The notes beneath the pieces were generated by a model that saw nothing but the letters and a program-made list of their open reading frames with translations, had not been told where the DNA came from and made no database searches. A stretch of 60,407 nucleotides of DNA, filler included, from Dugesia japonica (taxonomy: Eukaryota), in assembly GCA_001938525.1 (NCBI GenBank). It is 5 parts of 5 records of this genome, joined end to end, with 100 filler letters (N's around TTAATTAATTAA, not from the genome) between each part and the next. Parts side by side here need not be neighbours in the genome. Positions count along the whole stretch, not along the records: positions 10,517 to 20,873 come from MQRL01590355.1; 4 more parts are not named here. One strand, written 5' to 3'. Below, piece by piece: positions 1 through 40,788 of this stretch. How positions within the stretch are numbered: the stretch's first letter is position 1; each line of letters opens with the position of its first letter. Made by a program: the position numbers and the translations under genes.

Positions 1-1790
1 TCAGTGCAACCGGACTTTAAGAAGCCGTTTATATTAGCAACAGATGCAAGTGGATATACAATGATGTATTGAGCCAGTTAGACTAAGAGGGTCAAGAACG
101 GGTAATCGGGTATTTCAGTAAAACTTTTCAAAGTGCAGAAAAAAACTATAGTACAACAGAGAGAGAAATATTGGCAATAGTGAAAGCAGTAAAACATTTC
201 AACCAACTTATACTTGGACATGAATTAGTAGTGAATAAAGATCATCAACCGCTTACAATGATTGGACAAAAACTGTTACAGATAAATCGAATTGCAAGAT
301 AGGCCATGAAGCTACAAGACTATGCACCATTAGTAAAATATAAATCGGGTAAAGCAAATGCAAATGCAGATTATCTGTCAAGAGCGAGATTCACGGATGA
401 ACTAGAAGAAGATACTGAAACTAAATTGCAAGATAAAGAAGTAATTATTATTCAGCAATTAATGAATCGAGAAATACGAACTTTATCTATGATATTAGCA
501 GTGAACAAAGATTTNNNNNNNNNNNNNNNNNNNNNNNNNNNNNNNNNNNNNNNNNNNNNNNNNNNNNNNNNNNNNNNNNNNNNNNNNNNNNNNNNNNNNN
601 NNNNNNNNNNNNNNNNNNNNNNNNNNNNNNNNNNNNNNNNNNGACGATACGCAATAGTCAATGGATGGTTGATGATGAAAGAAAGCGACAAAATGTTGTT
701 AGTAATACCTAAAAATAGACAAGCAAAAATTTGGGAACAATATCATAATGGAATATTAGGTCATATGTCAGCTAAAAAGACGGAATCAAAATTGAGAGCA
801 AAATATTATTGGCCACATATGACGATCAGTGTAAAAACATGGGTAGAACAATGTTAGATATGCGCAGCAAGGAGAGGAACTAGGAAGAAATTCAAAGTTC
901 CGCTACAACCAATTCCAGTGCCCGCAGCACCGATGGATATAATAGCAATGGATATAATCGGACCATTACCACCAACAAACAATGAAAAGATATACATTTT
1001 AACAGTAGTAGATTATTTATCAAAATTCCCAGAAGCTTTTGCGTTGCGAGATCAGAAAGCAGCAACAATTGCCAAAGTGTTAGTTGACAAAGTATTTAGT
1101 CGTTATGGACCTCCAAAAAAATTTTAACGGATCAAGGGAAGAACTTTATGAGCGAGTTAATGAAAGAAGTTACAAGTTTCTTCAATATTTACAAACTACG
1201 GACATCGGCATATCATCCGCAGACGGACGGAATGACAGAAANNNTCAATCAAACTTTAACAAGAATGCTATCGAGCTACGCTTCAAAGGATCAAAGAGAA
1301 TGGGACAAACATTTGAATTTATACCTTTTTGCATATAGGATGGGAGTCCATCCAACAAGAAGAGCAACACCATTTAGTTTAATGTATGGAAGAGAATGTA
1401 TTATGCCTATTGATCTGGAATATCAACCAGCAATTTCACAATACATAAATGAAGACGATTATGTGACAGGCATGAATAGAGCGAATGAAGGGAATGTGGA
1501 AATTGGCAGAAGCAAATGCAAGATTTAGTCAAGAAAGTTACAAAGAATTACACGATCGTAAAGCCGACGCTCATACATTTAAAAAGGGGGATCTTGTGTT
1601 AGTAAACACACCGAAAATTGATATTGGAAAGACAGATAAATAAAGAGACCAAGCAAAGGCCCATATATGGTGATCGAAACAACGACAACAAATATAAAAT
1701 TAAAAGAATTGGGAAAACCACTAAANAAACCAAGTATCGTGCATGTATCAAGATATAAATTAGCAGCCAAAGAGGTAGAGGCAAATAAAG
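1..1790 (+). pseudogene. pol: Ty3/Gypsy pol, 3' part (RNase H, integrase HHCC, DDE core, GPY/F), decayed
   Basis: Translations give PDFKKPFILATDASG...KNYSTTEREILAIV...DHQPL...YKSGKANANADYLSR (RNase H); YHNGILGH...YYWPHM...C*IC (HHCC); MDIIGPLP...VVDYLSKF...TDQG...TSAYHPQTDGMTE (integrase core); KGPYMV. Several stops and frameshifts. Confidence 0.96.
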
Positions 1791-3418
1791 AAAACTTAGT
1801 AGAAGCAGAACCAGAAACGAGTAAAATGAAACGAGTTCTATTTAAATTAGACAAGCCNNNNNNNNNNNNNNNNNNNNCAATCAAATCAAGAAATCGTGTG
1901 ATGATGTTAACAGCAAAACCAATAACAAAACTTTTGGAGACTCAAGAACCAAACAAAAAAGTTAATCGGTGTAAAATCTGTCAAGAAACAGACAAGAAAC
2001 AGTACCTTTGTTAAAATGTCAATTGCTAAAAATGTGTTATCAATGTTTGAAAACGACACAAGATAAAATCGTGCATGTAGATTGAGAACTTAATAGAGTA
2101 TCATTACAAGTGTCGAGAGAAAACAGATATTAAAAGATCAGCATGTAAACAATGTATGGAAGTAGTACTAAAATTAAACGTGTCCAAGGAGAAATATAAA
2201 CAATGGTGTAATAATTGTATAACAAATGCGAGATGAATAATAAGTAGTGAAATTAGATGTGTCTTCAATCACTTAATGGGCTTATCAGCAGCAAAACCAC
2301 CAAGAGTAAATATTAAATTAACAACTGAGAAGATTATGAAAAAGTTTCAGCTTAATAATGATCTAACTCAATTTGAAAATAGACGAGATATACTTAATAA
2401 ATATTATCATTCAGTGGATAGCGGATTAATTCAAGAGAATTGAATTTGCGACTATCCAAGATGTGGACGATACGGAATGAATGGACACGAATCCGCAGAC
2501 AACTGGATACCACTGTGTAAATCATGCTTATGAATTTCACAGAGAATTACAATGAGGCAACAAGAAAGATAGACATTTAATAAACCAAATCGATTCGAGA
2601 TCGACAAAAANNNNNNNNNNNNNNNNNNNNNNNNNNNNNNNNNNNNNNNNNNNNNNNNNNNNNNNNNNNNNNNNNNNNNNNNNNNNNNNNNNNNNNNNNN
2701 NNNNNNNNNNNNNNNNNNNNNNNNNNNNNNNNNNNNNNNNNNNNNNNNNNNNNNNNNNNNNNNNNNNNNNNNNNNNNNNNNNNNNNNNNNNNNNNNNNNN
2801 NNTGAAATCAGATGCACTTATTGTAATAAAAATCGAATAGAAACCAGGATCGTAATAACGAAAAACAAGTTAAAAGGGGTATGCCTGAAATGTATAATAA
2901 TAATGGGGCTACAACTGAAAGAAGCTGTAGAGAAAATATGGGATATGATAGATACAAATCCAGAACAGACAGAAGCTCAGAAGTGTAATCGATGTGTATC
3001 AAAGAAACCAAATAAATGTCCAATTGTGGCGGAAGACTTAAAGAATTTATGTAATAAATGTTTCCAAAAGACAGAAATCGAGGTGAAAGACTCACTAATT
3101 TTAATAGCACGAAAGAGAAGCTGGTTGATGAATCATCCGGTACAGGATAATCAAGGATGTCTCCAATGTAAAACAAACGATGAAGCAATGGAGTTACCAA
3201 TACCAAATAATGTGTTCAAGAAGTTGTGTTTAATATGTACAGAGATAATGCGATATCAATTAGAGAAAACAGTTAACGAATTACATAAAGTAATGGCACA
3301 ACGGAAAATGGAAGAGCAACATCATTGTATCAAGTGGCAGCCTCGAATCGACGAGGACGCCGATCTTTCGAAAGAAGAGGGTGATTTGAAGAGACAAGGT
3401 GAAGCACTCATTAGGTAA
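1790..3418 (+). pseudogene. Post-integrase extension with six CxxC-x17-19-CxxC zinc-finger-like units
   Basis: CKIC..CYQC (~1970-2046), CKQC-x17-CNNC (~2143-2220), (Y)PRC-x17-CKSC (~2453-2527), CTYC-x19-CLKC (~2813-2893), CNRC-x18-CNKC and CLQC-x19-CLIC (ORF 2903-3418). Frameshifts and an N gap interrupt the frame. Confidence 0.7.
3370..3381 (+). promoter_or_regulatory. Polypurine tract of the Gypsy element
   Basis: GAAAGAAGAGGG at the end of the pol region, preceded by CGAGGACGCCGATCTTTC and followed by an abrupt shift to non-coding AT-rich DNA. Confidence 0.6.
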
Positions 3419-5635: not shown

Positions 5636-6241
5636 TTGGCACCGTTCACGTTGAAGCAGATCAATTGTAGACNATTTATATGTATCGGGTGAGCACCGTG
5701 CATTCTGAAAATAATCTGTGTCGGGTGAGCATCGCACAGAATACACAACAGTAAATAAGGATGCCGAGTGAGCACCAACCTTTATATGCAGCATTAAATA
5801 ATATGAAAAAATATACACGTCCAAATTTGGACATATTAGCAGAATCTGCGATTGAGCACCGCACGATTCAATGATTTTTCAAAGATTTGTAGAACTGCTT
5901 ACTGCAACTGTCAAAATTGATTTTACAGGGCAGTATAAAAGAAAAGATACCATCCAGCAAATTACCATTATTTACCATTTTTTAACATTTAATATTTTTG
6001 CCATATTTTTTCATTGTTAAATTTTACTAAATAGTTATTAGTCACTTATTAAGCACATTAATCGAGATATTTCTCTTAAAAAGAAACTCAGTTCTATCAT
6101 TAACAGACTACAAAGTAAATTTGAATTATATTTATTAGATAAAATCGGAAGACTGGAATGATGCTCATCGTTGACTGGCAACGATCGACATCAATGCTCA
6201 GAGATCCGTTCTTAATTTCGATGCGAGATTATCCACTAATA

Positions 6242-6490
6242 AAAGTTTATACTGCTATAATATTGAAAGTTTATAAAAGTTCATAATGCTATGATATTAA
6301 AAGTTTAAAATGCTATGATATCGAAAGTTGATAATGCGATGATATTGAAAGTTTATAATGCTATAATATTGAAAATTTATACTGCTATAATATCGAAAGT
6401 TGATAATGCGATGATATTGAAAGATTATAATGAGATGATATGTAAAGTTTATAATGCTATGACACTGAAAGATTATAATGATATAATTTT
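6242..6490 (+). repeat. 24-bp minisatellite, about 10 copies
   Basis: Unit AAAGTTTATAATGCTATGATATTG. It explains the repetitive ORFs 6315-6821(+) and 6297-6524(-). Confidence 0.9.
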
Positions 6491-7050
6491 TATGGATAAA
6501 AGAGTGGAACAACAGGTGCATCACTACAATAATCAGTTAGCGGAGATCTTGAGCAGGAACGAACACCGAAAGAAAGAACTGATATCTTTGCTGATACGAT
6601 CAACGGAAGTGCGAGCAATCCAAAGTTACTCAGCTAGAAATGGAAGAATTCAACAAGATGTCGGATCAGCTGAACATAAAAATCGAAGAGATGTTACGAC
6701 AGACTCTAATACCGCTCGATGGTACAAAAGAAAATCAGGAAACTTTATTGTGTATAATGATTCATGTGTTAACAGCAATACAGTTTTAAGTCTAGTATTT
6801 TCATGTCTTGATTATATTTAATGATAATGTGTTAAACTGAATCAAAGGAATAAGAGAAATTAAAAGAGAAATTCGTTTAAATTTTGTGAGTTCCGATTTG
6901 AAATGTTAATGATATATAATATGCTGAATGATTTAATATTTGATAAAATAATGGTTTAATAAGTATTGAATAATGAAGTTGATAAATCAAAACGAGAGCC
7001 GGATAGAAATGGAAATATAAAACGGGATACAGCATAGTCCCGCTGAATCC

Positions 7051-10416: not shown

Positions 10417-10516
10417 NNNNNNNNNNNNNNNNNNNNNNNNNNNNNNNNNNNNNNNNNNNNTTAATTAATTAANNNNNNNNNNNNNNNNNNNNNNNNNNNN
10501 NNNNNNNNNNNNNNNN
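10417..10516. other. Artificial assembly spacer (also 20874-20973, 30264-30363, 42217-42316)
   Basis: Exactly 44 N + TTAATTAATTAA (stops in all six frames) + 44 N, four times. Confidence 0.95.
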
Positions 10517-12335
10517 TCACCGCCGTGAATAAGGAGTACTGCTCTCGGGAACTAGCTACTTTAGATAGTTCTCAGGCCGAAAGAATTTTATGTTTATCTA
10601 GAAGAGATAAGTCATGAAGGTGTCGGCAACGTTAAGCATACGTAAATGATAGGGTGACCACCCACGGCAGTTCGGTTGGGTTTTGCCTTGAAATCCATTT
10701 TCTACAGCTATTTGCTCATAACCTTACTGAATTTTATTGATAAGGTGAAATGAGTCCTGGTAGAATCAGCCGAAATTGATTCGGAGAAACTTGTGATAAT
10801 TGAATTTCAGTGTTGACTAGAAGGTACATCAGTTGACAAATATGGAATCAGATTAGCGGGAGTTGGAAACCTAGGTAGAGTTTCAACTGTAATTTTACGT
10901 CAGAGCAGCACGAAAGTTACGTATCAGCGGAATTTCGATTTCCTTTGAAATCCTGCACATTAGCCAGTAGACCGGATACTTCTGGAGATTACGATTGAGA
11001 TTGTGACACATAATTTGGAGAGCCTGGAGTTGAATCGAAATAGACTACCAGCTACTCCATGAGATTATAGATTTGCGAAGCGATAATCGCAGCTGAAATA
11101 ATAGACTACCGGTTACTGAGTATTTGAAGAGATTTTAAAGGAGATTTTAGTTAAGATATCGCATGGCTGGAGTCGCCGAGACCACCAATCAGTGCAAGCG
11201 ATCAAGAATAAATACTTGGAACCTTACTGGTTGACCACCGGAAGGAGAACACGGCTGAAGATCTGATCGATGATAATGGAATAGAGAGAATGATAAATGA
11301 TATAGATTTGGAAATGAAATGTATTGATAGGATTTAATGAGGTTGAAGTGATTATTTTTGGATATTTTTGAAATGATTTAAGTGGATTTTAAAAGTTATT
11401 AGAGTTATTGGAGATTTTGGTTGAGACATTGGATATTGGAAATTTGAATTTGTAGTGGATTAATTGAGGTAAATGTATATGAAGAGTATTTTGGAGATAT
11501 TGAATAGAGTATTGTGAAAGCTATGGTGTTTTAGAGATACTAATGTGTACTAATGTGATGAGTAGTTGGGATAAGTATGGCCGAAGTAAAAAAAATGTAA
11601 TACAAAGATTATGATAAAGTAAAACGGTTATAAAGTGTAAAGATACGAGTCGACAAAGTAGATATCGCGTGTGCAAGAACTAAAAATAGTTAAAAGTGTG
11701 CAAATAAAGTCTAAAAAGTATGAGGAGTAGTAAACAAAGGTATGAAATGAATTAAGTTAAATTTGTAAAATTAAAGATGCGCATAACGAATTAAGTGAGT
11801 AAAGTAAAGTCAATGGATCAGATAAGTATGCAGTTTGTAAAAATTAAACTTAAATATGTTTATATGAGAGTGACAAGTAGATGTATAGTAAAGTAAACGA
11901 TAACAAGGGATGATGAAGTGAAAAAGTGTATATTGGGAATTAACAAGTACGAGTTATGAAATTATCAAGTATGTATAGAGAGTTTAATAGGTATGAATTA
12001 AAAGAGTGTGTGTAATTAATAAAGTGTATGCGTAATGAAGAGTGTGTGTATTGATAACAAGCTAACACAAATTAATGATAAATGCATAAAGAAGTGATGT
12101 AATTGGAGTGCAGAAGCCGGGAGGCTATCATATTTTACTTTTAGGTTATTCAACAAATCAAACGATCTAGAACTCAATCAGATAATTCACCATTGATAAT
12201 TCAACTGACAGATACAATCTACGCAATAAGACAAAGGATCAGAAATCTTATTCGAGTAAAAAATCACATCCAGCCAAGACACAGAGATCAGTAAGAGAAA
12301 TCAGCGCGATAACGACATATCGATCACTAAGTCAA

Positions 12336-13690
12336 TTGGATAATTTCAGAAGTGACAGTCCAGAATCAGGTGATGACTCAAATATGTCAGATAACGAGAC
12401 GAATAATTTAAATAAAACGTTGAACGATGACAATAATAGTATTAGCGGAACTAAAAGCAAACATGGATCGGAATGGAAAACGGAGTTTAATGACGAGCAT
12501 TTTTTAGGCGTTCCAGAAAAATTAGAGAGCTTTATAATGGCTTACGAAATTCATCGAAAGGCATGCAGATGGAGTGAAGAGCGAGCAGTAGATAGACTAC
12601 CGTTTTATTTTAAAGGATTGGCAAAAACGATATATTGGAATAAAGCAAAATTGGTCAAAGATGGAATAAAGACGTAGGCAGAACCGAAGAAACTTTAAGA
12701 GGACAACTTCAAACCATTGACATTACAAGGACAAGAAGTTCAAGATTTTACAGCAAAACGATAACTAAAAGATAAATCATTACAAACTTATGCAAACAGA
12801 GTAATGGAGACTCGGGAAATTAGAACTTGGAGAAGACGTGCAAGATAAAGTAATTCTTGGAATATTTATTAAAGGTCTCAGGAATGCAGAAGTGCGTAAT
12901 TGGGTAAACTTAAAACAGCCAAAAACAGTGGATGAAGCAAAAAATGAAGAAGGAGTATCACAACAGGTAGAAGCTTCACTGAAACAGGGAAGCATTTTTA
13001 AAATTGAGGAACCGGAGGTAAAGAAGGTTCCAAAGATAACCAATTTTATACCAGCAAACACGCAACCATTTTTAAAATCGTTGACTCTAGGTCAGAATCA
13101 ATCGGATAACAGAGGACAATTTAATAACTCGCGAGGAGGAAGTAATAATGGACAAAATAATTGGCAATCCGCGGGTAATCAAAACTTATTTAATTGTGGA
13201 AGATATGGACACATTACTAGAGAATGTCGTTCAGGATCATTAAGCTGTACTTTGTGTCAAAAGACAGAACATACGGCAGATCGATGTTTTACATCCAAAC
13301 TCATAGTATGTTATACTTGTAATAAACCGGGTCATACGAGCAGAAATTGTTTCAACAATACAAACCGAGGAGGATATAGAAATAATAATCGGGGATTTCA
13401 GAAGAAGTCAAACAATCAAGCAATCGAGAGTATGATGCAACAAAATAATAATCTAAGACAATAATTGCAAAGTAATCAGAAACAGAGTCAATAACGAGTT
13501 AATATGTTGCAGCAAGTAGTATAGCGACATGAAGCGACACAAAAAAGAGTATATGATAAACTCAAACAAGAACAAGAATACTTAAAGCTCCAAGTCGAGG
13601 AACAACGAGTAGCATAGATGAGATTGAACGAGAGAGCGGCACATAATAATAATGGTCAATGACGGGTGAATATGATGCGAGCAGTAAATG
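12336..13690 (+). pseudogene. gag: Gag (Ty3/Gypsy capsid, three CCHC knuckles, Q-rich coiled coil)
   Basis: FLGVPEKLESFIMAYE...WSEERAVDRLPFYFKGLAKTIY...FIKGL...VRNWVNLKQPKTVDEA; knuckles (F)NCGRYGHITREC, CTLCQKTEHTADRC, CYTCNKPGHTSRNC. Confidence 0.92.
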
Positions 13691-16053
13691 ATGAAGAGGT
13701 CAGAACAAGCTTCGATCAAACGACGAGTAGAGAGCATACTCGATTTAATACAAGGATTCAACGGAACGATCGACAGAAAACATTATTGGAAATTAATGAA
13801 TCATGTAATGGAACTAATGGAGTGTAGTCATCTAAGCCCAAGAACTAAAATGGAATGGCAGCCAATGATCTTGGAGTATGAAAGTGAAATGCGAGATAAA
13901 ACAATACCGGAAGACTTCAAAATCATAATCAATAAAACATGTAAAGAATTTAAAGAGCCATCTGGAGAGATAGCGCAGTATCAGGTCACCTTACAAAATG
14001 ATACGGTAGGAGGACTTTGTGCGCTATTAAGAATAAAAAGGTACTCGAAAGACCGCTGTATGATTATGTGTTATGCTCCAAGACGAGAGTAATCGAACAA
14101 GATGATATTGATGCGCAAATAACAAATTATGAAATTCGACCTGGACGTATAGAGATAATACAAGTCTTAGATTTAACAGAAATTTATAAAACGAAGCAAC
14201 CAGTGCGGCATTATTTACAATTTTGAACAATAAAGGAGATAATGAAGTCCTTGGAGCAGAAACTTTATCGATATACAACGGAGGTACGAAAACCAATGAC
14301 AACTGCTACACGAGACCGTCAACCCGTCAAATAATTCAATTTTGAACCGACTAAATTGGCAACAAGCAGATTAAATATATCTAGCAATGTTAAAACCGAC
14401 AAAGAAATCAATTAGACGATGACGAGATCAGCAATCAAGGTTCCACCATGTAATTTAGGAGTGATGGCACAAGTAAATATGATGACAACTAAAGAGATAT
14501 CTGATACTGAAAATGAAACAGATAATATAATCCAAAAAGAAATCGAGACAATAGAAGCATTACTAAAGATAAAGAGAGCCATCAAGGAACCGACAGCGCG
14601 ATCAAAGATGGAAATGAATCAACGGAGGCTATCGACAAAATATTCTCGATAAAGCGGAATCTAAAGGATAAATTAAACAGATGACGTTATTGGATGACAA
14701 TGAACCACTTGGCGGAAATAACTGAACTAAGACATGTAGATACTACGACTAAATAGAAGTGGAAGCTGCTAATCATGAAATACAAAGCTGAGGTAATAAA
14801 GGAATTAAAAAACAAGGATTATTTTGTCTGGGTCGGAGAATCAATCAAGCCAGTACCGATAGGTGAAGAGAGGTGGAGTCCAGAAAACATGTGACCAATA
14901 ACGTTAAAGGCGGAAATGACGAAATACTATCGTCCTAAAGTCATGAAAATTAAAGGAACAACAATTAGAGATTTAATTGAAGCTTTATCGGAATTAGAAT
15001 GGCCGAAAGCGATAACAGAATATATTATACATATTCCAACAATCAAGATCAAGATGATGTAGACGAACATGTATATACTTATGGAGTCAAACCAGGATGG
15101 GAACTGGAAATTAGATTGACCGACAAAGAACGAGTGTGTCGAGATCAAGAGAAATTATGGCCGCACTTAGATTTTCGAACAACAGAGGAAATTTTGATAT
15201 CGCTGTATGAATGTTTTATGAGTTATATAGTGCCGCTAATTAAAGATACGAAACTCAAAGAACGAAAAAATCAAATTTCAGATTCAAAGACTGAAGACAA
15301 CAAACCGAGTACGAGTCAAGAAAGATTATTCATTATGCGATCAATTTCAAAATTTTTGAGTAAAAGTAATAAGAGCCCGAAACAACCAACGATTATAAAT
15401 GATATTAGCATGAGTAAGTTGAGCGAGATAACGGTAGCAGGGACGATGATTCCGACAACGAATATTATCAGAATGTAGTAACTATAGAAAATTATGTCAA
15501 AGAAACCTTACGTCGAAAAGAAAGAATCCCGAAGCAATCGTATTGGAGAATATTGAATATAGCATGGGATGAACATTATTATTAGTGGACGAGAGGAGCA
15601 AAACGCAGTGCCAACCCAGAGTTAATTGAGAGGTACACAGAGCAAATAAAGAAGGAAACTGTGGGAGCATATTTTGGAGTTAAAATTAATTATCCGACGA
15701 TAGATGATTATTTAGTGACAACAATGCAAACAAAAGTGATTAAACGATTTGAGACGACAAATGCGGGTGAATTAAAGGATATTCTTAGTGAATTACTGTT
15801 AAAACATGGACTGGAGCGATATATAATACTATGTGATTATATGATAATTGAACGAGACAAATTGAATAACTGAGAAATGCATTTAATTGAGTTCAGGTTA
15901 AGACCTGGAGAGATTACAGAATTAACATTAGAATATGATGATGGTCAACCGAAAGAGTTTATGAAGTTATCAGTCAGTAAAATGCGAGCAAAAATGAGAA
16001 AAGTATATCAAGAGGAGATAGACCAATTCGAGTATTTAAAGTTAATACATGAT

Positions 16054-16455
16054 TGTTTTACAATTGCAATTATTATGAGAATAATTTTTGGACTTAACCA
16101 TTGATCGTTTTATAGAATTCATATAATATTAAAGCTTAGATCAAAATTATTGATATTGGATAACAATTCGATACTTCGACCTTGTCTTCGTCAGGAATTG
16201 ACTTNNNNNNNNNNNNNNNNNNNNNNNNNNNNNNNNNNNNNNNNNNNNNNNNNNNNNNNNNNNNNNNNNNNNNNNNNNNNNNNNNNNNNNNNNNNNNNNN
16301 NNNNNNNTTATTTTATATTTAATTATTTAATTTAATTATTGTAAATTATATTTAGTTTAGAATTGCTTTATTTTATTAGTATTTCTTCATGTTTTTTCTA
16401 TGAAGTGTAGATATGTAGCCTGTTCCTAGTGTTTTCCATGTAATAATACATGTAA
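16054..16455 (-). mobile_element. ~400-bp hammerhead-containing insertion (Penelope- or retrozyme-like) with 12-bp TSD
   Basis: TTAATACATGAT at 16042-16053 and 16456-16467; removing the insert rejoins LKLIHD|DQIALT. The terminus GAGAATAATT(T/G)TTGGACTTAACCATTGAT recurs at ~45177, and inverted at ~31800. Confidence 0.75.
16164..16200 (-). ncRNA. Minimal type I hammerhead ribozyme (one core mismatch)
   Basis: Minus strand reads CAATTC-CTGACGA-A-GAC-AAG-GTC-GAAG-TATC-GAATTG: stem I CAATTC/GAATTG, CUGANGA core, stem II GAC/GTC, GAAA changed to GAAG, short stem III with an NUH (AUC) site. Confidence 0.7.
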
Positions 16456-18291
16456 TTAATACATGATGATCAAATTGCATTGACAGCAACGACAGGAAAC
16501 GAAATGGAACCATGGAAAACCTTAAAGTAGAATTTAGCAAAAATCGGATTAGTAATAATTTTCATTATATTAAAAGTAGACAGAGGAAAGAGGTAATTGA
16601 TCGAATGGATCAACAAGGGTTGATATTTGGAGAACATTTTAATGAAGCTGTGAGAGCAATAGTTTATTTAAAGGCATCGCAAACGCCGAAATAAGTAGTG
16701 AAAGTAACAGCACATTTTCCAGATGAATCGAGTAAAGAATTTAAAGTGAAACGATGACAAAATGGGAGAAATTGATAAAACAAATACTAAAGTATGTGAA
16801 TAAACAATCATTAATAGACAAAGAAAATGTGGCAGTGGTAAAAAAGAGAAGATATTGTAATTTATTAATTACGGAGGATCTCGATGGAGAAGCAGTGAAA
16901 TTATCAGGTATATGGCCAGGCTTTATGATGAATATATATGTATTTGCAACAGGAGACCGAGAAAGAAATCCTTATATTAGAAGAGAAATCAGAGAGAATC
17001 TATGTCAAAAAACAATACAATATTATGTGGAGAATGTGAATCCATTAATGCCATGTGAGTTACAGGTGCATCCCGAAGACTTAAACTTTGAACTAACTGA
17101 ACGAGTTACAATGTTACAAACTGGATGAACAACGAATCGACTGTACAGATCGAATCAAGAGTTGAACAGATCCGCAGAGATATTAGAGATGAAGAATCGT
17201 AAAAAGAAGACAAATGAAGATGAGGAAAGTTTATATTATTAATCAACGAAGAGGAGATTTCAAAAGTAGACGTTCAGCATTTAATGGATCAAATGCTATT
17301 AAAAAGAGATTTAGCAATAGACGAATTGAGAGATTTAACATTTGAAATATCGAGATATAAAGAGAAATTTACGTGGGGACCGAAACAATTCAGACAGATT
17401 ATAAAACGATGGCATGTCAATGAAATAGATGAAATTGAGCCAAGGGAATACAATTTTCGAAAAGTAGATCCAGAAGAGTATATAACCAGGATAGCTGGCT
17501 TGGCTTACGAAACAATTGGAGATGTAAAGGAGAAAATACCGTTTGAGTCACCATATATTTTGACATTAAATGACAGAGAAATGTTAAGCGAAGATATAAT
17601 TGGAACATTAAACGTTCGTTGCAAGCAGACAGTTTAATTGTATATTAAACCGGAAGTAGGGAAGAGATAAATGAAAAATAAATTAGTTAAAGGTACAACG
17701 TTACCAACTGGAAAACAAATTCAACCGCAGATTACAAAGTATACGAAACCAATTGTAATCGACAGTGAAGAGGGTACGAGTAATACGACGTCAAAGTCAA
17801 CAAAGAGTAAATCAGCGAAGTCAAAAGGACATGTATCGTAAAGAGAAATTACGACAAAAGAAGATGATGTTATTAAACAAGTATTTAGATTACCAAGTGA
17901 TGACGATGACGAAGAGGAATTACAGATAACGAGAATTGATCCAGCAACAATGAGTCAAATGCCAGTGAAAAAGTAAAAGATAGTAAAGAGTAAATGTAAT
18001 CCTAGAGAAGTAGATATTGATATTCTATCACCAAGAATACCAGAGTAAACAAGACAAAAGCCACCTTCATTTTTAGAGAAATCACCTTCATTGATAGAAT
18101 TTGAGCAAAATGAGAGAATGCCAACTCCATTAGAATATGAATTTGGAGAAGAAAATATAATTCCACCAGTAGAATTTGAAGAGGAAATAACGACAACAGA
18201 TAATGCAATCGAGACTACAGATAATCAAGAAGAAACGACAGATCAAGAAATATATCAGAGAATAATGGTCGATGCGGAAACAGAAATGGAG

Positions 18292-18318
18292 CGGAAGGCG
18301 CGAGGCCGACCAAGAGGA
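18292..18318 (+). other. AT-hook motif within the retroelement polyprotein
   Basis: RKARGRPRG in ORF 18091-18897, after a long acidic/Pro-rich linker. Confidence 0.7.
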
Positions 18319-18420
18319 TCTATTACGACAAAAGGAACAACACAACGAAAACTTAAGCAAGATGAACAATTAGCAGCAGTATCACAAGAGGTCACGGAGA
18401 AATTTGAACCAGCAGAATTA

Positions 18421-18729
18421 TCGACAGAAAAAATAATGCATCAAGTATTATTAATATTATATCCGGAATTAAAGATGTGGATTGGAAATACAGTATTATC
18501 AGCAAAGTGTAAACATATTGCAGCATTATTGGAACCAATAATACAGAAGCTAACAGCATTTAAATGGACAGGAAAGAAAGAACGAGATAAATTAGAGAGT
18601 GCAGTTGAACGAATATTTGGAGGATGTCCAACTTCATCAAGAATTGCAGCGGCAGTAACATATTTAGTTAAACGGACGCACTTGGCGGTAATAGACAAAG
18701 GAGGATGGTCAGTGTGGAACGAGAAATTA
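18421..18729 (+). other. Bcl-2-like helical domain (candidate) in the retroelement polyprotein
   Basis: LESAVERIFGGCPTSSRIAAAVTYL resembles BH1 (F..VVEELFRDGVNWGRIVAFF); IDKGGWSVWNE resembles BH2 (IQDNGGWDAFVE); upstream helices sit in BH4 and BH3 positions. Confidence 0.5.
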
Positions 18730-18861
18730 AAACCGGAAACAAATCCACAACGAAACTTAGTAGAAAGAGCACGATTATTGATGAAAGATTACATAGACGA
18801 AATAGGGACAGAATCGAATGATAGAGCAAGGACGAATGCGAGTCCAAATGGTATACAATCA

Positions 18862-20873
18862 ATGTTAATGTTATTAATGTTAATGATGCTAATGTGACGT
18901 GGTGCAGCTATAAAAGTGTATGATTGTGATAAAATGAATATTGGAGAAACGGTATATTCTTTAGTAGACGTGGATGAATGTCCAGAAGTGAATCTAGAGA
19001 GTGTAGAACCAGTTCAAAAAGCGATACCATATTTTGTGTATGAGGAATCAGATTATTACAAGACAAAGGTAAGAAAATGTAGAATGACAATGACAGTGTT
19101 TGTGTATTATTGTGGGACAAGAAGCTATACAGCAATTATCGAAACTGGACAAGAAGTAAGACAGATCTCTCTAACAGGGCAGCAATGGGAAGAAGGATTT
19201 GTAACTGGAAAAATAAGAGTAGCAGACGGAAAAATTGTTAACGCTAAAAGTGGACAGATCATGCAACTAAGAATATTCGCAGCAGAAATTATATCGGATG
19301 AGCATGGAACATGTACTCGAGGTACCTATACTGTAAAAGGAGTAGTCACCAGTTATGTGGTAGTGATATAAAGTTATCGAGTCGAATTAAAGGAATATGA
19401 TATATTCTTCGATACAAAGACACAGATGATGAAAATGTACACTATGTGTAAAGCGTCAGATCTTTAATGTGACACGGGAACATCAACTTTAGTGTATAAT
19501 GTTAATCATCAAGAATGCGCAATGATATTTCTTAAAGAAACGGCTTTAAACTAATATCAAGGTAAAATGGTTATTAAAATAGATGAAAAGGAAACGACGC
19601 GACCAGTGGGGAAGGTAGATGAAGGCATGAAACCAAAAGCAGGTAAAATACACTGGGTAGAAACGCCAGTAGTTTTAATGTCGACTGACAAAAACGATAT
19701 GATCCGTTTGATACGAAAGAAAACNNNNNNNNNNNNNNNNNNNNNNNNNNNNNNNNNNNNNNNNNNNNNNNNNNNNNNNNNNNNNNNNNNNNNNNNNNNN
19801 NNNNNNNNNNNNNNNNNNNNNNNNNNNNNNNNNNNNNNNNNNNNNNNNNNNNNNNNNNNNNNNNNNNNNNNNNNNNNNNNNNNNNNNNNNNNNNNNNNNN
19901 NNNNNNNNNNNNNNNNNNNNNNNNNNNNNNNNNNNNNNNNNNNAAATATTAAAGACGAAATTGGCAACAGCAACTACAAATCCAGATAATGTATCACCAT
20001 TATTACCGATAGAGGAAGGACAATTTTGACGAACATTACCTCTCGTAATGTTCAAATATCGATGTAAAAAAAAGGATGCAACGTTGGCACCAAAGGAACA
20101 TAATAAATGCTATAATGAAGTAGAAATACTTTATGACAGAGAATAACGATTTGTGCAGCCAATCACTAGAGTTATATCACCACGAGGATATATTCCAAAT
20201 TTGATAAACTGTTCAAATTTATTTGAACCTTACTTTAAACTACAGAATAATAAATGGGTACGATTTCCAGAGAGACTTCCAGTAACAAGAGTCAGAAATT
20301 TTTCATGATTACAATTAAAAGGTGGAACACAATTTACACCGTTAAATATAGCGAAAGGAGGAATCTATCAACAAGAAGATTTGGACAAAGCAAGAGAACC
20401 TATGTTGTTTTCAGTAAAGATGATGTAAATTCTATCAAATCTAGTGCAAATAGCAGGATTGAGGATTCACAGCAGATGGTAGACCAAATTACGAATTATT
20501 ACTATCCCCGGATCATTTTCAGACAGCAACAGTCAATGTAATTAAGAAAATGTGGGGTCGATTCATAGTTTTTTGACAAGCAATGGCTGGATTACTAGGA
20601 ATAATTTTCATAAAACAGTCAAAGTGATATTGACACGATTATTGGCATGTTTGGACTTATACAAGAAAGAAAGATATCTTGGTCAATGATGATGGGAATA
20701 TTTCCAGCATGATCAAAGTCGGTAGTATTAAATAGTCATTCAAATGACTTACACTGTACGAGGAGATTATTGCGATATATGAGTCAAATAAAAGGAACAG
20801 ATGAACAGATTGTCAATCAGATTCGAGCAATGTGTAAAGATATGAGGAAACGAAAAGAAAGAAAAACGACAAT
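18862..20873 (+). pseudogene. env: Chuvirus-like (Jingchuvirales/Monjiviricetes type) fusion glycoprotein, env-like
   Basis: Signal peptide MLMLLMLMMLM*RGAA, then VYDC..YSLVDVDEC..KVRKC..YYCG..GTC..VVVI*S..MCKASDL*C; after the gap YRC..KCYNEVEI..FVQPITRVI..INC..W..GGIYQQEDLDKAREPMLF; TM region KMWGRFIVF*QAMAGLLGIIF..WSMMMGIFPA*S. The motifs follow chuvirus G order (GYDC, SLLDVGEC, YYCG, CYNELPV, GIYT.EDLD...MF, LWGGFITFG). Confidence 0.88.
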
Positions 20874-21149
20874 NNNNNNNNNNNNNNNNNNNNNNNNNNN
20901 NNNNNNNNNNNNNNNNNTTAATTAATTAANNNNNNNNNNNNNNNNNNNNNNNNNNNNNNNNNNNNNNNNNNNNTTAATCTCATTTCATAATATGACATCA
21001 TTTTTCCCAATTAAATGAATTAGGATTAAGTTTCAATATTCCATAAAAAGAAATGTCATAAAACACTATAAATACGAGACGAATACACTACAAGTTGACG
21101 TAGACGATAGTTTGGAATAAATTTACATGAAGGCGTGTAAAAGAAGACT

Positions 21150-27059: not shown

Positions 27060-29930
27060 TAAAAAGAAGTGTACCGAGACGAGAACTGTTAGCTGCTGGC
27101 TCTGCTGACTAGAACGATCGTCACCTGCCGGTTATTTTCGCACGAGATCATCCACCTTGAATTTAGACAGTGTGAAAGTTGAATATTGTTGAGTTGATTA
27201 TGAGAAAGTTAGACTCCATATTGTGAGACGATGTTATGCAGATGAGAGAGATAAATATTTTTGAAATATATGCTTATGAAAGAGATCCCCATTGTTAAAC
27301 TATTATGATTATAAAAGAGACATATATTGTTGGGAGAAGTTAATAATGATGATGTTTTAAGATATAAATAGTGTTGAAAGATCTTGAGCGAAAGATGAGA
27401 AGTAATATGATGAGAGATAAATATTGTACATATGAGTGAGATAAATTGGTAAAAAGAATATCTATGAATTAATCATTAGCAACATGAATACGAAATTGAA
27501 CAGAAATACATGAGATAAGATGGTTTACTGTTAATAAGTGGTGGTTGAACTTCTTTTTAATCTTCGATAATTAATTTGATTCTGAGAAATGATAGATGAA
27601 CTTTCTTCTAATGATTATAATAAGATACTTTTGTGAACCTTATTATAAATAAAACTTTAATTGTAAAGTTTTATTTAAAGATAGCAGTTCGATATATAAT
27701 CATGATTTGTTTTTATTGTTTTTTGAACTCTAGAAATATGATTATGAATAGTTTTGTAGAATACTTATTTCAATTATTGATAATTTGATATATATGCATG
27801 ATCATTCTTTAAACATAATTGGATCACGTTATTAGTTCGGAATCTTACTGATGCATCATGAAACAGGAGGACCATTCGTCATTTGGAAAGAGATAGACTC
27901 TCAAACGAGATTAGACAATAATGCGGTAGTGACTTTATGACCACCTATAGAATTGAAAGTTTTGATTGAAACAAAAGTAATATGAAAAAAGTAGAAAGTA
28001 GACTCCTTCCATAATAACGAATGATCGAGATTCTGTTATAGTATTTATGTTTTATGAGTAAGAGATAATGTTCACGAAGAGAATACTCTGCAAAAATATT
28101 AAACTATTATTCAATGCAAAACTATTATTTGTATATAGTTTTAATAGTTCCATAATAGTTCCATAATACATGCTAGTATTATGGAACTCACTCATATCTG
28201 AGGATAAAGATTTGAAGCCATGGTGGATTATCCAGGATAGCCTCAGGCAAAAGAACAGACAAATGCTCGAGTTAAAAGAAAAGATCACTCAGCAGGAAGA
28301 CACACTCCAATAAAAGCTAAAGGTACTTGACACACTGAAATTAAAAGTGGATCAACCAACACCAACTGTGAGTGATATCAAAACAAGAGGGCGGAATTAC
28401 TCGTCGGAACCACAGAGCTTGCAAAACAACAACAACGCCTAATACAGACGATGCGTTCCACTCAAAAAGAGGCAGAAGAATACTCAAAGTTATCTGAGTG
28501 ACTGTCAACCAAAGTCGAGACGATTCTCCAACATATTCTGATACCATTGTACAAAACTGATAGTAGCCATGAAACCACAGTGTGATTGTGTTAAAATGCA
28601 ATACAGTTTTCATGTTAATTGACTTTTCTGTGTCAATAGCTAATATCCGAAAGAAGTGGTTCTCCTCTATGCACAAGAATTTGCAAAAGTGAAATTATAG
28701 AATTACAAAGGAAGAATACGCTCCTCAGAGAAAAGTATACGCGTCTGAAAAAAATGGATTTTGCCCTCTCGCAAACGTGTCGCGCGATGGCCGACATAAC
28801 GAAATCCTATGCAGATAGAGAAAGTGTGTTAATAGCAACTGAGCAGACGTTAACGTAAGTGTTAGGGTGAAACACCCGGTTTAAAAAGAAAATTATAACC
28901 CAGGGTTTAAATTAGAAACAATAAAGTAAAGAAAGGGAGGCAGAGAAACTAATTAGGAATATTTGTCATTTGGATAAAATTATAATGATTTAGAAAATTC
29001 GGAAGAAAATGCAAAATGAAGAAAGAAAATACCGGGTGGATAAAATATTAGCTCTAATTAATTCCAATAATTTAAGTAAGTATAATTTATTAACTAAAAA
29101 ACAAGAAAATTATCATTAAAAATAATGATTAATTAACAAGAAAATTAATTAATTTGTTTCAAAAAAGAAATTAAATGAAGAGAAAAATCGGTTTTTATAG
29201 GATATCATCACTCTGGAAGATCACAGAAAATCCAAACAAGAAAACTTGGAAAGAGGAAGTCACCGGGCAACTAAATTCTGTACCAAAAAAGTGTAGTACC
29301 AACAGAAGGCTCTAGAAAAGGAGTTGAAGAATAGACTGATGAGGGGTCAGAAAATAAATGAAAAACAAAGGAACGTAAATCAACTGGTGTCCTAAAAATA
29401 GGCACCAATAGAACAAACAGAATTGGCAGAAAAAAGCTAAAAATTATGCCATGGGCCAATGCGAGTCGGAGAAAATAAATTTTAAAATAACAACCGGTCA
29501 GATTCAAGCAGTGATGCTAAGCAGAGGGTATATAAACCCGGGTGAAAAAGTGAAACTTAACTTATAAAAATTTACAATATATTGGTTAATTAATCCTGTG
29601 AAACCGAAAGCAAAGTAATTCATTAACGACAACTAGGTATTGGAAAATTTATTTATCAGTTATATTTAGGAGAAGATTAAAAAAGGGAAAACTTTCAGTT
29701 CAACTCAGTGGAAAACGGTTTAGAAAACATCAATTCAAACAGAAAACCCAAATCAGTATCATCAAACCTTTTGCAGAATCACTTACCTTAATAATGTGTA
29801 ACTGTTTGTATTTTAAATATTATGTCAAATAATAAAGTTAATCAAATTCTTACCAAAAAAATCTTTTTTTTGTTTGTCATGAATAATAAAATGAAAATTT
29901 CAATATTTGACAATAATTTTTATAACAACA
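27060..29930 (+). mobile_element. Probable decayed LTR-element internal region plus LTR-like segment
   Basis: Purine-rich strand, a degenerate coiled-coil frame near 28230-28450, and a TGTTA (28860)...TAACA (~29926) segment with TATA and AATAAA. No TSD or second LTR found. Confidence 0.3.
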
Positions 29931-31659: not shown

Positions 31660-31833
31660 TAATCAATAAAAATAAAGAAAAAGCTTCGATCAAAATAAAA
31701 TATATTATCTTCTACAATTGTCGAAAATTTGAATATCTATAAAAATACATTTTATTTTGATTGAAGCTTTTTATTTATTTTAATGAAATCTCAAATGCGA
31801 TCAATGTTTAAGTCCAACAATTATTCTTGCAAT
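31660..31833 (+). mobile_element. Second copy of the hammerhead-element family (ribozyme core deleted)
   Basis: Inverted repeat AAGCTTCGATCAAAATAAAAT / ATTTTATTTTGATTGAAGCTT around ACAATTGTCGAAA, plus the terminus ATCAATGTTTAAGTCCAACAATTATTCTTGCAATA. Confidence 0.6.
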
Positions 31834-32486
31834 AATCAATATGGTCTATCAATTTAAATGACAAATTCAAATTTCGAATCTAATATAAATTCTGCAAATA
31901 TTTTGCAACATGCTTTTAAAAAGTATGCAACTAAAGTATTTGATAACCATTAATTCATTTTCAAATTCACAGCAGAATCAATAATTTTCTTGGTAGCAGA
32001 CTCTGTAGCAGCCTCTAGCTTCAATGAACAGATTTAAAATCGGTAAAAGTGCCCAAACAAATCCATTTCCATTTTGTCTTTGGAACCATAATATACTTCC
32101 TTTTTTTATTTCTTATCTTGAAATTGCTCTGGGTGATTTGTAAAAATAAATAATCACGTTAATGTTCCTTATGGGACAACAAACAAGATATATTTGACTA
32201 TCAATTAAATGTTGTATGACGAATTAAAATATAATTAGTTTTTGTTTAAAGATAATTATTGATTATTTTTATAAATATGTTTTTACTATTATTTGATGTA
32301 AATATATTATTATCACCTTTAATTTATTATTTAAAAAACCAAATTCTCACAAAATTATGAAATTTCACACTAATCGAAATTTCATACCAGTGTTGAGAAA
32401 TCGCGATTGGTCTCGACCCTACTTATCTACCTACTTATGGAACACACTAGAAAAGAGTAAAATGAAATAAAAACATTTATATTTAC

Positions 32487-36230: not shown

Positions 36231-36460
36231 TGTCAGGATAAGTAAATGAATATTTTAAGTTTTAATTTNNNNNNNNNNNNNNNNNNNNNNNNNNNNNNNN
36301 NNNNNAAGTTGTTTAAATATTCAGAGTGCTTGACAGAAGATTGAAAATCAAATAAAAAGAGTAAATAATTAAAAGGTGGAATTTCTAATTGTTTTAGAAT
36401 AAATATGTGAAAGTATGACTGACTATTTACTGAATGAGCACGTATGCCCTATTTCTAATA
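36231..36460 (+). repeat. 5' LTR
   Basis: TGTCAGGATAAG...TTTCTAATA, direct repeat of 40559-40788. Confidence 0.95.
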
Positions 36461-36473
36461 TGGTGGCAGCGGT
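36461..36473 (+). promoter_or_regulatory. Primer binding site, tRNA-Leu
   Basis: TGGTGGCAGCGGT is complementary to the tRNA-Leu 3' end ACCGCTGCCACCA. Confidence 0.85.
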
Positions 36474-36501
36474 TAATACAGATAGTATTACGGACCATCT
36501 T

Positions 36502-37514
36502 ATGTCTGATATCTACAGAAGACATGATGACATAGAAAAATTGATATGCAAGTGCGAAATGTATTTCGGCGTCAAAGGAATTAACAATAAAAAAAGATCA
36601 GGAATGGTTTGTAACGTGTTTGATAGAAGAGGAACTAGTTGGGAAGTATATTGAATTATTTAAAAAACAGAAGTATTCCAGGATCGACTTCACATAGCTT
36701 TTGGAAAGGAAAAAAGCATGATACGGGATTTCAGAGAACTATTAGATTTCAAACGAAATCATGAAGATGTGGAAACATATATTTCCAAAGTAGAAGAATT
36801 GATAAATAACTTATTTTCAAATAAAATTTTATACAAGAAAACATGGTGGCAAAGATGCTGATTCACTGTGCAGGCGATAGACGCGCAGAAGAAGTACTCC
36901 TTAGGAAAATAAATGAAGTTAATGGCATTAAAGAAACTTTGAGATCGTTAGAGAAACTGAAGAATAAAAGAGAACAAATTAATGTAGTTCAAAGCAGTCC
37001 AAAAGAAACGGTAAGATTTAATCAGACAGCTCGAAATGTGGATAGAAAACAACAACATAGTTGGTTAAAGTCTAATGATATATTTAGATGTTGGGAATGT
37101 GATAAAAAAAAAGGCCATAGTCGCCGAGAATGTCCGATGAGAAGACAAATGAAATGCTGGACGTGCGAAAAAGAAGGTCATATTAGTCGAGACTGCAGAG
37201 AAAATCAGATGAGACGATGCTTTTGATGTGAATTAAAGGGACACATTTTTAGAGAATGTAAAGAAACAACCAGCAATCAGACGAAGAACGAGGTTAGATC
37301 AAATATGTTGAACAGTAATGGAGGAATGAATCGAACTTATTATGACAACAAGAGAGTTAATGGATTTTAAAATATTAGATGTGCACCATTACATGTGATT
37401 CAGGAAGACTAAGAGCAAGGATTAAGTTATGAAAAGGATGGAGAAGATGAGAGATGAAGATTCCCAAATGTAGAGGCTCCGACAGTAGAGGAGCTAGTTG
37501 GAGCTGCATATTAA
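36502..37514 (+). pseudogene. gag: gag with three CCHC knuckles
   Basis: CWECDKKKGHSRREC, CWTCEKEGHISRDC, CF*CELKGHIFREC. Confidence 0.88.
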
Positions 37515-37699
37515 CTGGAAGTTAAATGGTATATCCTCAGGGAGTGGAGAAGTGAGAAGATGTGAATGCGATTGGAGAGAAAGTATTTAATTTTATGAAA
37601 AATGAGTGGTAGAAGTAGATAAGAGAGATGGAAAATGTTGGAGATAAAGAGACAAGCAGAGGCAGTAATTGAGTATGATGTATTTCAGGGTAGACAGGG

Positions 37700-40545
37700 A
37701 TGGGAGATAGGGATGGGAGATCAGTGGTGGGACCTTTGTTAGATTCGGGGGCAAGAGTAAACGTAATGAATTCAGAATGCCTTGTGAAGTTGGGGAAAGT
37801 ATCATTAGAATGTTGCGGGACAAAACTTTGGTTTGCAAACGACAGTTTATTGGAGAAATTGGGTACAGTTAGATTGTGGGTGCAATGGAAAGGAAGAGAG
37901 AAACAGATATTATTTACGGTAGTGAAACAAGTAGTACCGGATATTATAGGTGGTATGGAATTCATGAATGCGTTCGGGTTTTCATTGATATAACGAGGTT
38001 TAAATAGCAGTAATGCAGAATCCAAGAAGTATATTTGCAATATAGAAGATAATTTCGGGAAACAAGCTGACACAGATGAACAATGGAGGAAATCGGACAG
38101 TACGATAAATTGGAAAGGAGATGATCGGTTGGAGGATGTTTGTAGACAAAAATGGGGAGTATTTATTGCAGAAAAATTATATGTGGGTCGAACAAATACT
38201 GTTGATCACAAGATCATTACGAAAGGAGAGCCAATTAAAACGAAACCCTACATAAAACTGATAAATTTGGAGAGCAAAATTGACGAAACAATTTAAAACC
38301 TGTTTGATAAAGGCATAATAAGACGATGTAATTCTCAATGGAATTCACCATTGGTATTCGTATGGAAGAAAGATAAACAGGATATCAGGTTATGTTTAGA
38401 TTTCAGGAAGCTGAAAGCTATTACAGAGAGACAAGCGTTCCCAATGCCGAATATTGAATAGATGCTAGATATGTTGAAAGGGATGGCTTACTTCAGCACA
38501 ATAGACCTTGGTAATGCTTATTACCAAGTAGAGTTAGACAGCGAATAGCAGGAAAAGACAGCATTTTCGACTAAACAGGGTCAGTACTGTTTCAACAGAA
38601 TGACGTTTGGCATTGCAGCAGCGCCGGATACGTTTCAGAAGCTGATGGTAAAGGTGACGAAAGACATCAAGGGATCAAGTATATTTAGTTGATATCTTTA
38701 TTTTTTCTAAGACACGAGAAGAACATTATGGAATTGTAAAGAGTGTTGGACAGCATTAGTGAAGCAAGTCTCTGTATTAGCCCAGAAAAGTGCATTTTCC
38801 TTCAGAAAGAAATTAAAGAAATTAAAGAAATTTGTCTTAGGACAAATTATCAATTCAGAAGGAATTTGTACAGATCTGGTAAAAATAGAAGCTATTCAAG
38901 CTTTTGAAGAACCATTATGGGAGAAGAAATTGCGTAGCTTCATGGNCATCTGTAATTATAGAAAGTTTTTTCATGAGTATGCAAATAAATCTAGAAAATT
39001 GGAGCAGCTATGTAGCGGTCAAGGTAATACGAAGATAATTTGGTCTTTAGAGTTATCAGATGTGTTTAAAGAAATGTAGAAGGCTTTAATTTCTACATCA
39101 ATTTTAGGATATTTGAATGTGCATGAGGAATTTATTCTAGACACCGATGCTAGCTTTAGAACGAATGATGCGATGCTGTCGCAAAGGGATGAAGACGGAA
39201 ACGAAAAAGTGATAGCATACGGGTCTCAAGCAATGTCTACCCACGAAAAAGGATACTGCATAACTCGTAAGGAACTCCTGGAAGTATATTACTTTTGTTT
39301 AAGCTTAAAACATTATTTATATGCTTGACCATTTATTTTAAGAACGGATCACAAAGCGATCACGTTCATGTTGCATACAAAAAAACCAATTACAATGCAG
39401 TTCCAAACCTGGATTAATTTTCTAAGTAGTTTGGACATGAAATTGGAATTCAGGAAAAGTGAGAATCACGTCAATTCAGTTGTTTTAAGTAAATTGTACA
39501 GTGATAAATGCGTACAGTGCCAATTAATACATGAGGAGGTAAAGATGGGAAAATTGAAGACGAGAAGACTAGGAGACACTGAGGAAATAAAGAAGTTGGA
39601 TATTGACATGAGTGGAAATAGAATGTCGTAGAAAATTTGGCTATTAGANGAGACAATGGAGCAGAAGATTGTGGAGATTCATAAAGCATTATGTCATGGA
39701 GGCATAGAGAAATCGGAGAAATATATCTGCTAAAGATACGAAGAGAGACAGTTAAGATCAAGAATTAGAGAGATTATAAGAAGCTGTATTTTCTGTCAAA
39801 AAGCAAAGATTTCGACAAGTACAAGACTCGAAATAACTAAAGAATCAGACAGTTTTACTCCGTTCGAAGTGATGTTTATAGATATTTTTGGCCCATTAAA
39901 TGAGACGAAGAATAGGAAGAAATACATCCTTGTCATGATCGACCAATGTAAGAAGTTTGTAGTTTTATTGAGTTTAATTAGACAGGATGAAGGTACGATT
40001 CGAGATTGTATTTTGAAGCACTAGACTCTGAAATTTGGATGTCCAAGAGTGATACGTTCTGATTGCAGGAGTGTCTTTGAATGAAAATAGATGAAACAGA
40101 TAAAGCAAAGATTACGTGGCAAGTGTTGAGTCCTTATCATCATAGGACAAACGCTCAAATTGAACTCCAATTTCAGACGATTAGGGATTTATTAAACGCA
40201 TCGATACGAGATAGAGGAACGAGATAGAGGACAAAACAGAAAACTACACAATGTAGGCCGGCAGAGTTAGTATTCGGGAGACAGTTGTACAGGGAAGGGT
40301 GGTGGTCAAAAGAGAAGACGAACAAAAATCAGATGACAGATATAGCTAAGGATAAAAAAGCCAGACAAGAAGACATTTTCAAATAGGTGAGAAATTACTG
40401 GTAGAAGTAGAATCTTGAGATAAAAACCAAGATCGGTATGAGAGACCGTATTTAGTGATGAAAAAGATTCATGAGAGACGTTATGTAGTAGAAAGGAAAG
40501 ATGGAAAAAGATTGACGCGGAACATCGAAAAACCTAAAAATTTCT
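37700..40545 (+). pseudogene. pol: pol (protease, RT, RNase H, integrase), many stops and frameshifts
   Basis: LLDSGA (protease); SQWNSPLVFV.KK..IRLCLDFRKL..FSTIDLGNAYYQV..KTAFST..RMTFG (RT); ILDTDAS..VIAYGS..TRKELL..TDHKA (RNase H); HKALCHGG..CIFC..IDIFGPL..SPYHHRTN (integrase). Confidence 0.93.
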
Positions 40546-40558
40546 GGAAGGAGGAGGA
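40546..40558 (+). promoter_or_regulatory. Polypurine tract
   Basis: GGAAGGAGGAGGA immediately before the 3' LTR. Confidence 0.85.
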
Positions 40559-40788
40559 TGTCAGGATAAGTAAATGAATATTTTAAGTTTTAATTTAAGA
40601 AATTAATTAGAAATTAATTTAAATAAAAAAAAGAAGTTGTTTAAATATTCAGAGTGCTTGACAGAAGATTGAAAATCAAATAAAAAGAGTAAATAATTAA
40701 AAGGTGGAATTTCTAATTGTTTTAGAATAAATATGTGAAAGTATGACTGACTATTTACTGAATGAGCACGTACGCTCTGTTTCTAATA
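40559..40788 (+). repeat. 3' LTR
   Basis: Matches the 5' LTR except for three substitutions near its 3' end. Confidence 0.95.

Follow-up and report, generated by a model that had tools for sequence, protein, structure and literature searches.

The closest described relatives of the element reported here are the giant gypsy-like planarian elements Burro and GYPSM1 (PMC6431247) and the GAG-ENV-POL errantiviruses (Chary and Hayashi, PMC13524379). According to the accessible part of PMC6431247, Burro has one open reading frame (ORF) of 4,873-5,140 amino acids, made up of gag (two or three CCHC knuckles), Smc, MATH, Ubi2/SUMO-like and BCL2 domains, a mononegavirus-like env, and protease, reverse transcriptase, RNase H and integrase (PR-RT-RH-IN); it is called there the first case of an env placed in frame between gag and pol. 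According to PMC8532177, BURRO1 is transcribed and controlled by PIWI. GAG-ENV-POL errantiviruses with an env of the herpes simplex virus (HSV)/gB type are reported, in the available text of PMC13524379, from Nematoda, Bryozoa and Platyhelminthes, and six such elements of S. mediterranea, with up to 215 copies, are listed. A literature search on gag-env-pol retrotransposons led to this paper alone. Here, a window of 60,407 nucleotides from Dugesia japonica (GCA_001938525.1) was analyzed, consisting of five unlinked contigs (pieces 1 to 5) joined by artificial linkers. The element under study is confined to piece 2 (10517-20873, MQRL01590355.1), which most likely represents the 5′ part, about two-thirds, of a decayed, contig-cut, Burro-like Ty3/gypsy (Metaviridae) element with the order gag-accessory-env-pol (estimated probability 0.88).

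As far as Burro and GYPSM1 are presented in the accessible part of PMC6431247, piece 2 shares with them three CCHC-type knuckles, a long accessory region, a probable Bcl-2-like domain directly before a mononegavirus-like env, and probably the position of env, in frame between gag and an inferred pol. The estimated polyprotein length is similar as well: by our own estimate, ~2,700 codons seen plus ~1,900 for pol and tail amount to ~4,600 amino acids, near the length given for Burro. A total size of 25-30 kb and an RT that groups with Burro1-4 would further mark a Burro-like element. By description only, the differences are that MATH/TRAF, BIR and ankyrin domains had no Pfam match in the decayed single-frame segments of this incomplete element, that the window may hold three or four candidate ubiquitin-like units against one in Burro, that piece 1 has a Cys-rich tail, and that pol and LTRs (long terminal repeats) of the window element were not seen, the contig ending at 20873. 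With the GAG-ENV-POL errantiviruses, as covered by the available text of PMC13524379, the element shares a Ty3/gypsy gag and a gB/chuvirus-type env before a (here predicted) pol, and it differs in that this copy is not intact and has a long gag-to-env spacer (~5 kb). The nematode endogenous retroviruses of Sacco et al. 2022, as cited in that text, resemble it by description in their flipped env/pol order. The known gene order is left unchanged by the window element, which enlarges the little-studied gag-env-pol group by one divergent copy, its env being 29-39% identical to the best database relatives. The BEL/Pao element Anakin has the order gag-pol-env. Anakin and the Drosophila errantiviruses are likewise LTR elements with a captured fusion glycoprotein, which in Anakin belongs to the same chuvirus class and in the Drosophila errantiviruses is F-type, with the order gag-pol-env; gag and pol of the lineage studied here are of the Ty3/gypsy type. 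Troyka, as presented in the accessible part of PMC12440569, was set aside as not relevant.

According to the original prediction, no protease, reverse transcriptase, RNase H or integrase is encoded between gag and env (13464-18900), and this was borne out by motif, Pfam and profile scans. A regular-expression scan of the six frames of this interval returned no D[ST]G, YxDD, RNase H, GPY/F or PxTDG motif, and the single loose HHCC match spans many stops. With stops read as X, Pfam detected only zf-CCHC and Monjiviricetes_fusion (PF24664) in the six frames of piece 2. Profiles of PR, RT, RH and IN were built from 12-14 related pols and gave no match in the interval (best independent E-values: RT 8 and IN 22; PR and RH none listed). 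The same profiles detected the decayed pol of piece 4, which served as positive control (PR 5e-8, RT 4e-50, RH 3e-32, IN 7e-23), and that of piece 1 (RH 2e-26, IN 2e-52). These pols are equally decayed. The absence of pol from 13464-18900 is real. Gag, accessory region and env follow each other on one continuous coding strand with no pol between. The pol between gag and env that marks canonical gag-pol-env errantiviruses and Anakin is missing from piece 2, and the combination typical of gB-type GAG-ENV-POL errantiviruses was found: a Ty3/gypsy gag with CCHC, a gB/chuvirus-type env and no pol between.

Homologues of env were collected by phmmer, using 17125-19724 as query against 1.84 billion representatives (E <= 0.001). 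All 111 matches were to env, and all were scanned with Pfam. Pol domains (PR and/or RT-RH-IN) were present in nine of them (P0003, P0004, P0005, P0007, P0009, P0011, P0018, P0025 and P0043), and such env-pol fusions make up six of the 12 best matches. Pol lies C-terminal to env in 9/9 and N-terminal in 0/9; five of the nine fusions have env-PR-RT-RH, and four continue to IN. In three proteins (P0004, P0008 and P0025), env is preceded within one ORF by a gag knuckle, and no pol lies between the two. An env tree was made from the window and the 65 of 111 homologues that were long enough, with support from the Shimodaira-Hasegawa-like approximate likelihood ratio test (SH-aLRT) only. The window env falls in a clade (SH-aLRT 94) with fusions P0003, P0004, P0005, P0007 and P0009 and four gag- or accessory-env proteins, and 15 stand-alone glycoproteins fall apart from this clade. 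The gag-accessory-env-pol order, one of two alternatives put forward in the original prediction, is thus strongly supported by all nine informative relatives, although it loses its novelty, this architecture having been described already. In four of the fusions (P0003, P0004, P0005 and P0007), two or three tandem aspartic-protease domains were seen after env.

In piece 2, PF24664 was matched in successive parts of env (E 2e-19, 9e-18 and 2e-4). Env is in frame with the Bcl-2-like domain and with 580 upstream codons; the coding signal runs on from gag, through several frame changes. The piece ends 134 codons past the conserved env anchor that precedes the transmembrane (TM) segment, and is coding-like to the last. 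Eight of the nine fusions could be aligned to the anchor, and their first protease Asp follows at +158, 175, 199, 200, 222, 223, 252 and 418; as the contig ends at +134, the start of pol would be expected a short way past the linker.

The coding signal of piece 2 is continuous from 12300 to 20870 on the + strand and falls only within an AT-rich stretch of ~0.4 kb. The gag knuckles (zf-CCHC, E 1e-10) lie at ~13189-13350, the first lacking its first Cys. In a set of 14 proteins, the capsid part matched the gag of the env-clade relatives P0008 (E 1e-8) and P0011 (E 2e-7), and the gag of P0008 matches the dArc2 capsid in PDB (E 0.007). This copy is dead, because it contains 36 in-frame stops in 2,598 codons (counted over partly overlapping segments), several frame changes and one insertion. 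Upstream of gag, 10517-12300 is probably part of an LTR plus leader. No repeat partner was found for an LTR pair of piece 2, in which only one element end is present, and a comparison by eye of TGG sites with the primer binding site (PBS) table in the available text of PMC13524379 gave no clear match. One TGG-starting site at 12104-12121 (+), 280 nt upstream of gag, shows a loose likeness, not a clean match, to the Leu-type PBS of that table.

At 16042 and 16456, two copies of a 12-bp direct repeat border the AT-rich stretch. Matches of at least 12 bp occurred in 23 of 1345 control pairs from the whole window and in 7 of 562 from piece 2 (1.2-1.7%). Dispersed copies similar to its segment 16067-16147 occur at 31754-31836 and 45167-45205. 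From these features, we infer that the stretch was inserted secondarily and is flanked by a target-site duplication. The dispersed AT-rich repeat, seen at 16067-16147, 31666-31836 and 45167-45330, contains a palindrome and is similar to a miniature inverted-repeat transposable element (MITE). The two N gaps of piece 2 had been judged too short to hide pol, which holds; only 16205-16307 is inside 13464-18900, and the other is inside env. The length of the env gap agrees with the relatives (Table 1), and the gap lengths of the assembly therefore look like true estimates.

The 5.4 kb between gag and env encodes, in decayed form, the accessory part of a single polyprotein. In accessory region I, related units were chosen by eye near 14083, 15041 and 15847 (ends at ~14180, ~15130 and ~15950), and the similarity of the unit pairs exceeds that of 2000/2000, 1985/2000 and 1944/2000 shuffles. 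In accessory region II, the segment before env in P0002 has its counterpart at 17370-17625 (E 2e-5, 14-protein set). A mixed profile, built from two segments of the window and five relatives, gave 36 matches, most of them to ubiquitin-family chains (best E 0.011), and a segment of P0008 matched Pfam ubiquitin with E 0.0055; ubiquitin-like segments are present in relatives, as in Burro by description. These data provide a lead that the accessory units may be ubiquitin-like. Searches of the accessory segments against Pfam, PDB and the ESM Atlas (the latter without 17125-19724) returned nothing significant; the best Atlas score (0.89, bacterial) was treated as noise.

Directly before env, the helical domain at 18367-18800 scored above 1995/2000 shuffles with a six-relative profile. 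At the same position in P0013 and P0049, Pfam Bcl-2 was matched with E 0.001 and 0.002, below cut-off. A model of the pre-env domain of P0048 had a predicted local distance difference test (pLDDT) score of 60-74 over residues 71-140 and 47.7 overall. Comparison of this model using VIA gave Bcl-2 family members in all top six rows (Z 9.0-7.9), with A179L first (Z 9.0, root-mean-square deviation 2.7, 99 aligned), Z values that can be common among helical bundles; the best Foldseek match was Bcl-xL (E 0.019). By position, motifs and the model of P0048, the window copy of the domain is probably Bcl-2-like. A PDB sequence search with the window segment was empty, and a first profile of four relatives had no match in the frames of the whole window. 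The accessory-Bcl-2-env cassette of Burro recurs in several relatives and therefore supports the idea of apoptosis and ubiquitin modulators inside the polyprotein.

Piece 1 contains RNase H and integrase followed by a Cys-rich extension. The main blocks of its RH-IN are 33-50% identical to P0003, P0009, P0018 and P0025, compared with 27-29% for the pol of piece 4. A pol tree was made from 51 homologues and four env-pol fusions, of which 38 entered; 17 homologues with integrase ahead of RNase H were left out. In this tree, piece 1 comes out as the sister (90/93, not starred) of a clade that includes P0003 and P0009, and P0018 and P0025 fall elsewhere; the split between these two pairs is the same in the env and pol trees. 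As the RH-IN of piece 1 groups with env-pol relatives, a pol without downstream env is expected there. The original prediction had described this pol as running through its extension, without env, into a polypurine tract (PPT): the extension without env is present, whereas several purine runs and no LTR pair were found in place of a defined PPT. From the grouping of its RH-IN, piece 1 plausibly makes up the 3′ end of an element with gag-env-pol order, possibly of the same family as piece 2. Its Cys-rich extension gave no Pfam match at cut-off and no match in the extensions of relatives. The tails of related pols instead hold a further protease-like or membrane-anchored region. The order with integrase before RNase H in 17/51 pol homologues is one that we take to be Gmr1-like; these include P0118, P0130, P0135, P0139 and P0141, several have a SCAN domain, and some may be tandem or chimeric predictions.

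Several observations weigh against the assignment of piece 2 to a gag-accessory-env-pol element. The sequence seen stops at 20873, and pol downstream is deduced from the nine informative relatives; the other 102 of the 111 carry no pol domain and are uninformative on order. The 9:0 count is one-sided, since an element whose env has an ORF of its own could not appear as a fusion. The best relatives are 29-39% identical to the window env, and no copy of the same family was found. Supports in the env and pol trees are below the starred threshold. Because 13 stand-alone glycoproteins end +126 to +183 past the anchor, the contig end alone cannot separate an env that stops from one that runs into pol. 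Pieces 1 and 2 have no DNA similarity. For the accessory region, a ubiquitin profile from window segments only had no ubiquitin match, a profile from relatives only peaks at the candidate sites, yet below control maxima, and a five-relative profile on 17125-17700 did no better than 656/2000 shuffles. For the pre-env domain, HHalign probability was 5% and the spacing from BH1 to GGW is short; a single-sequence model of the window segment (pLDDT 44.8) had no Foldseek match, and a homologue search with the segment gave nothing at E <= 1.

The other alternative of the original prediction, a pol-less gag-accessory-env element mobilized in trans by a second element that carries pol, for instance that of piece 1, found no positive support and is very improbable. 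Piece 2 lacks pol, piece 1 has a pol of the same lineage without downstream env, the contig ends within the range where stand-alone glycoproteins stop, and clade members P0013 and P0021 end after env without protease, although these may be cut by their own contigs. On the other hand, piece 2 stops in coding sequence before a protease is due, and each contig breaks off exactly at the place of the half that it lacks, piece 2 in the env tail and piece 1 in RNase H. After env, neither a 3′ LTR nor a PPT was seen, and nine relatives fuse env to pol. The proposed comparison of LTRs between env-bearing piece 2 and pol-bearing piece 1 showed nothing shared, only a 26-bp chance match; adjacency of the two pieces is uninformative, since they are unlinked contigs joined by an artificial linker. 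Literature on non-autonomous, enveloped or bipartite systems offered no such case by title or abstract, a weak search that is no proof of absence. A split genome of an enveloped LTR retroelement would surprise a specialist; in its full form, a bipartite Metavirus with gag, tandem ubiquitin-like units, a Bcl-2-like domain and a gB-type env, replicated by a pol-only element with a Cys-rich tail, it is equally hard to credit. A milder and less improbable novelty, a Burro-like lineage of intact order with three or four tandem ubiquitin-like domains, can be put forward tentatively and is rather doubtful than probable.

Two other explanations are slighter still. If the element were of canonical gag-pol-env type and pol had been cleanly deleted in this copy, the heavy decay would fit and a clean deletion would leave no trace. 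However, env follows in frame on the accessory and Bcl-2-like part, just as it does in the env-pol relatives, gag is joined to env without pol in single intact ORFs (P0004, P0008 and P0025), and no pol remnant was found. Intact copies with pol between gag and env, which would make this copy a plain deletion, were encountered in none of the nine informative relatives. Least probable is a scaffolding chimera, in which the gag half and the env half of two elements were joined across the gap at 16205-16307. A short-read-style assembly of a repeat, the gap itself and a shift in composition between the halves are compatible with it; against this, the gap sits within an insertion that is flanked by the 12-bp direct repeat (chance 1-2%) and, further out on either side, by coding sequence, gag and env match the same relatives (P0008 and P0011), and in the half after the gap env is still preceded by 2.4 kb of coding sequence other than pol.

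For the intact gag-accessory-env-pol element, the following mode of expression can be proposed. A single long ORF would encode gag, accessory domains, a Bcl-2-like domain, env, PR, RT, RH and IN, presumably as one polyprotein. An internal signal peptide would direct env into the endoplasmic reticulum, and the TM segment would bring the chain back to the cytosol, so that Gag, the ubiquitin-like and Bcl-2-like domains and Pol may remain cytosolic. These cytosolic parts would be freed by signal peptidase together with the protease of the element. Env could then serve cell-to-cell spread, and the accessory domains would probably act on host ubiquitin and apoptosis pathways. Coordinates of the features are given in Table 1.

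Table 1. Features of piece 2, piece 1 and the linkers, in positions of the window.
Feature	Position	Strand	Remarks
5′ non-coding region	10517..12300	+	No consistent coding frame; no repeat partner
gag	12384..13400	+	Ty3/gypsy capsid and three CCHC-type knuckles; interrupted by stops and frame change
Accessory region I	13401..16053	+	Q/N-rich coiled-coil-like stretch, then three related units; continuous coding signal
AT-rich stretch, putative secondary insertion, with 103-N gap (16205-16307)	16042..16467	.	12-bp direct repeat at borders, target-site-duplication-like
Accessory region II	16456..18366	+	Folded segments, candidate ubiquitin-like unit at ~17380-17646, acidic low-complexity linker; coding signal
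Helical domain directly before env	18367..18800	+	Putative homologue, by position and motifs, of the Bcl-2-like domain in relatives
env	18862..20873	+	Internal signal peptide at ~18862-18909, Monjiviricetes-type (gB-like, class III) fusion glycoprotein, TM region, start of tail; ends with contig
N gap inside env	19725..19943	.	219 N = 73 codons; 73-75 residues across the same place in 11 relatives
RNase H and integrase (piece 1)	3..1800	+	Same broad env-pol lineage; Pfam; unlinked contig, begins in RNase H
Cys-rich extension after integrase (piece 1)	1880..3418	+	Repeated CxxC; from translation
Linker, piece 1/piece 2	10417..10516	.	44 N + 12 nt + 44 N
Linker, end of piece 2	20874..20973	.	Just short of expected protease
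Artificial linkers (start positions)	10417, 20874, 30264, 42217	.	Identical, 100 nt, 44 N + 12 nt + 44 N

The window has an overall guanine plus cytosine content of ~28%. A scan against GTDB gave a lone 38-residue match to a bacterial metagenome-assembled genome, which was judged spurious. Another decayed element, of canonical gypsy type (gag-PR-RT-RH-IN) and lacking env, lies in piece 4 at 36400-40600 (+); an imperfect repeat of 230 bp (36231-36460 versus 40559-40788, 83%) may be its LTR pair. An 82-codon, exon-like open stretch at 34191-33946 (-) presumably encodes part of a PAQR/MMD-type membrane protein, and a fragment at 49049-49360 (+) resembles what we take to be the N-terminus of a mariner transposase. 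In piece 1, a 24-bp tandem array (6228-6515, +) was seen within a 170-codon open frame (6309-6821, +), and 6601-6786 shows protein-level similarity to 28433-28610 (E 5e-5).

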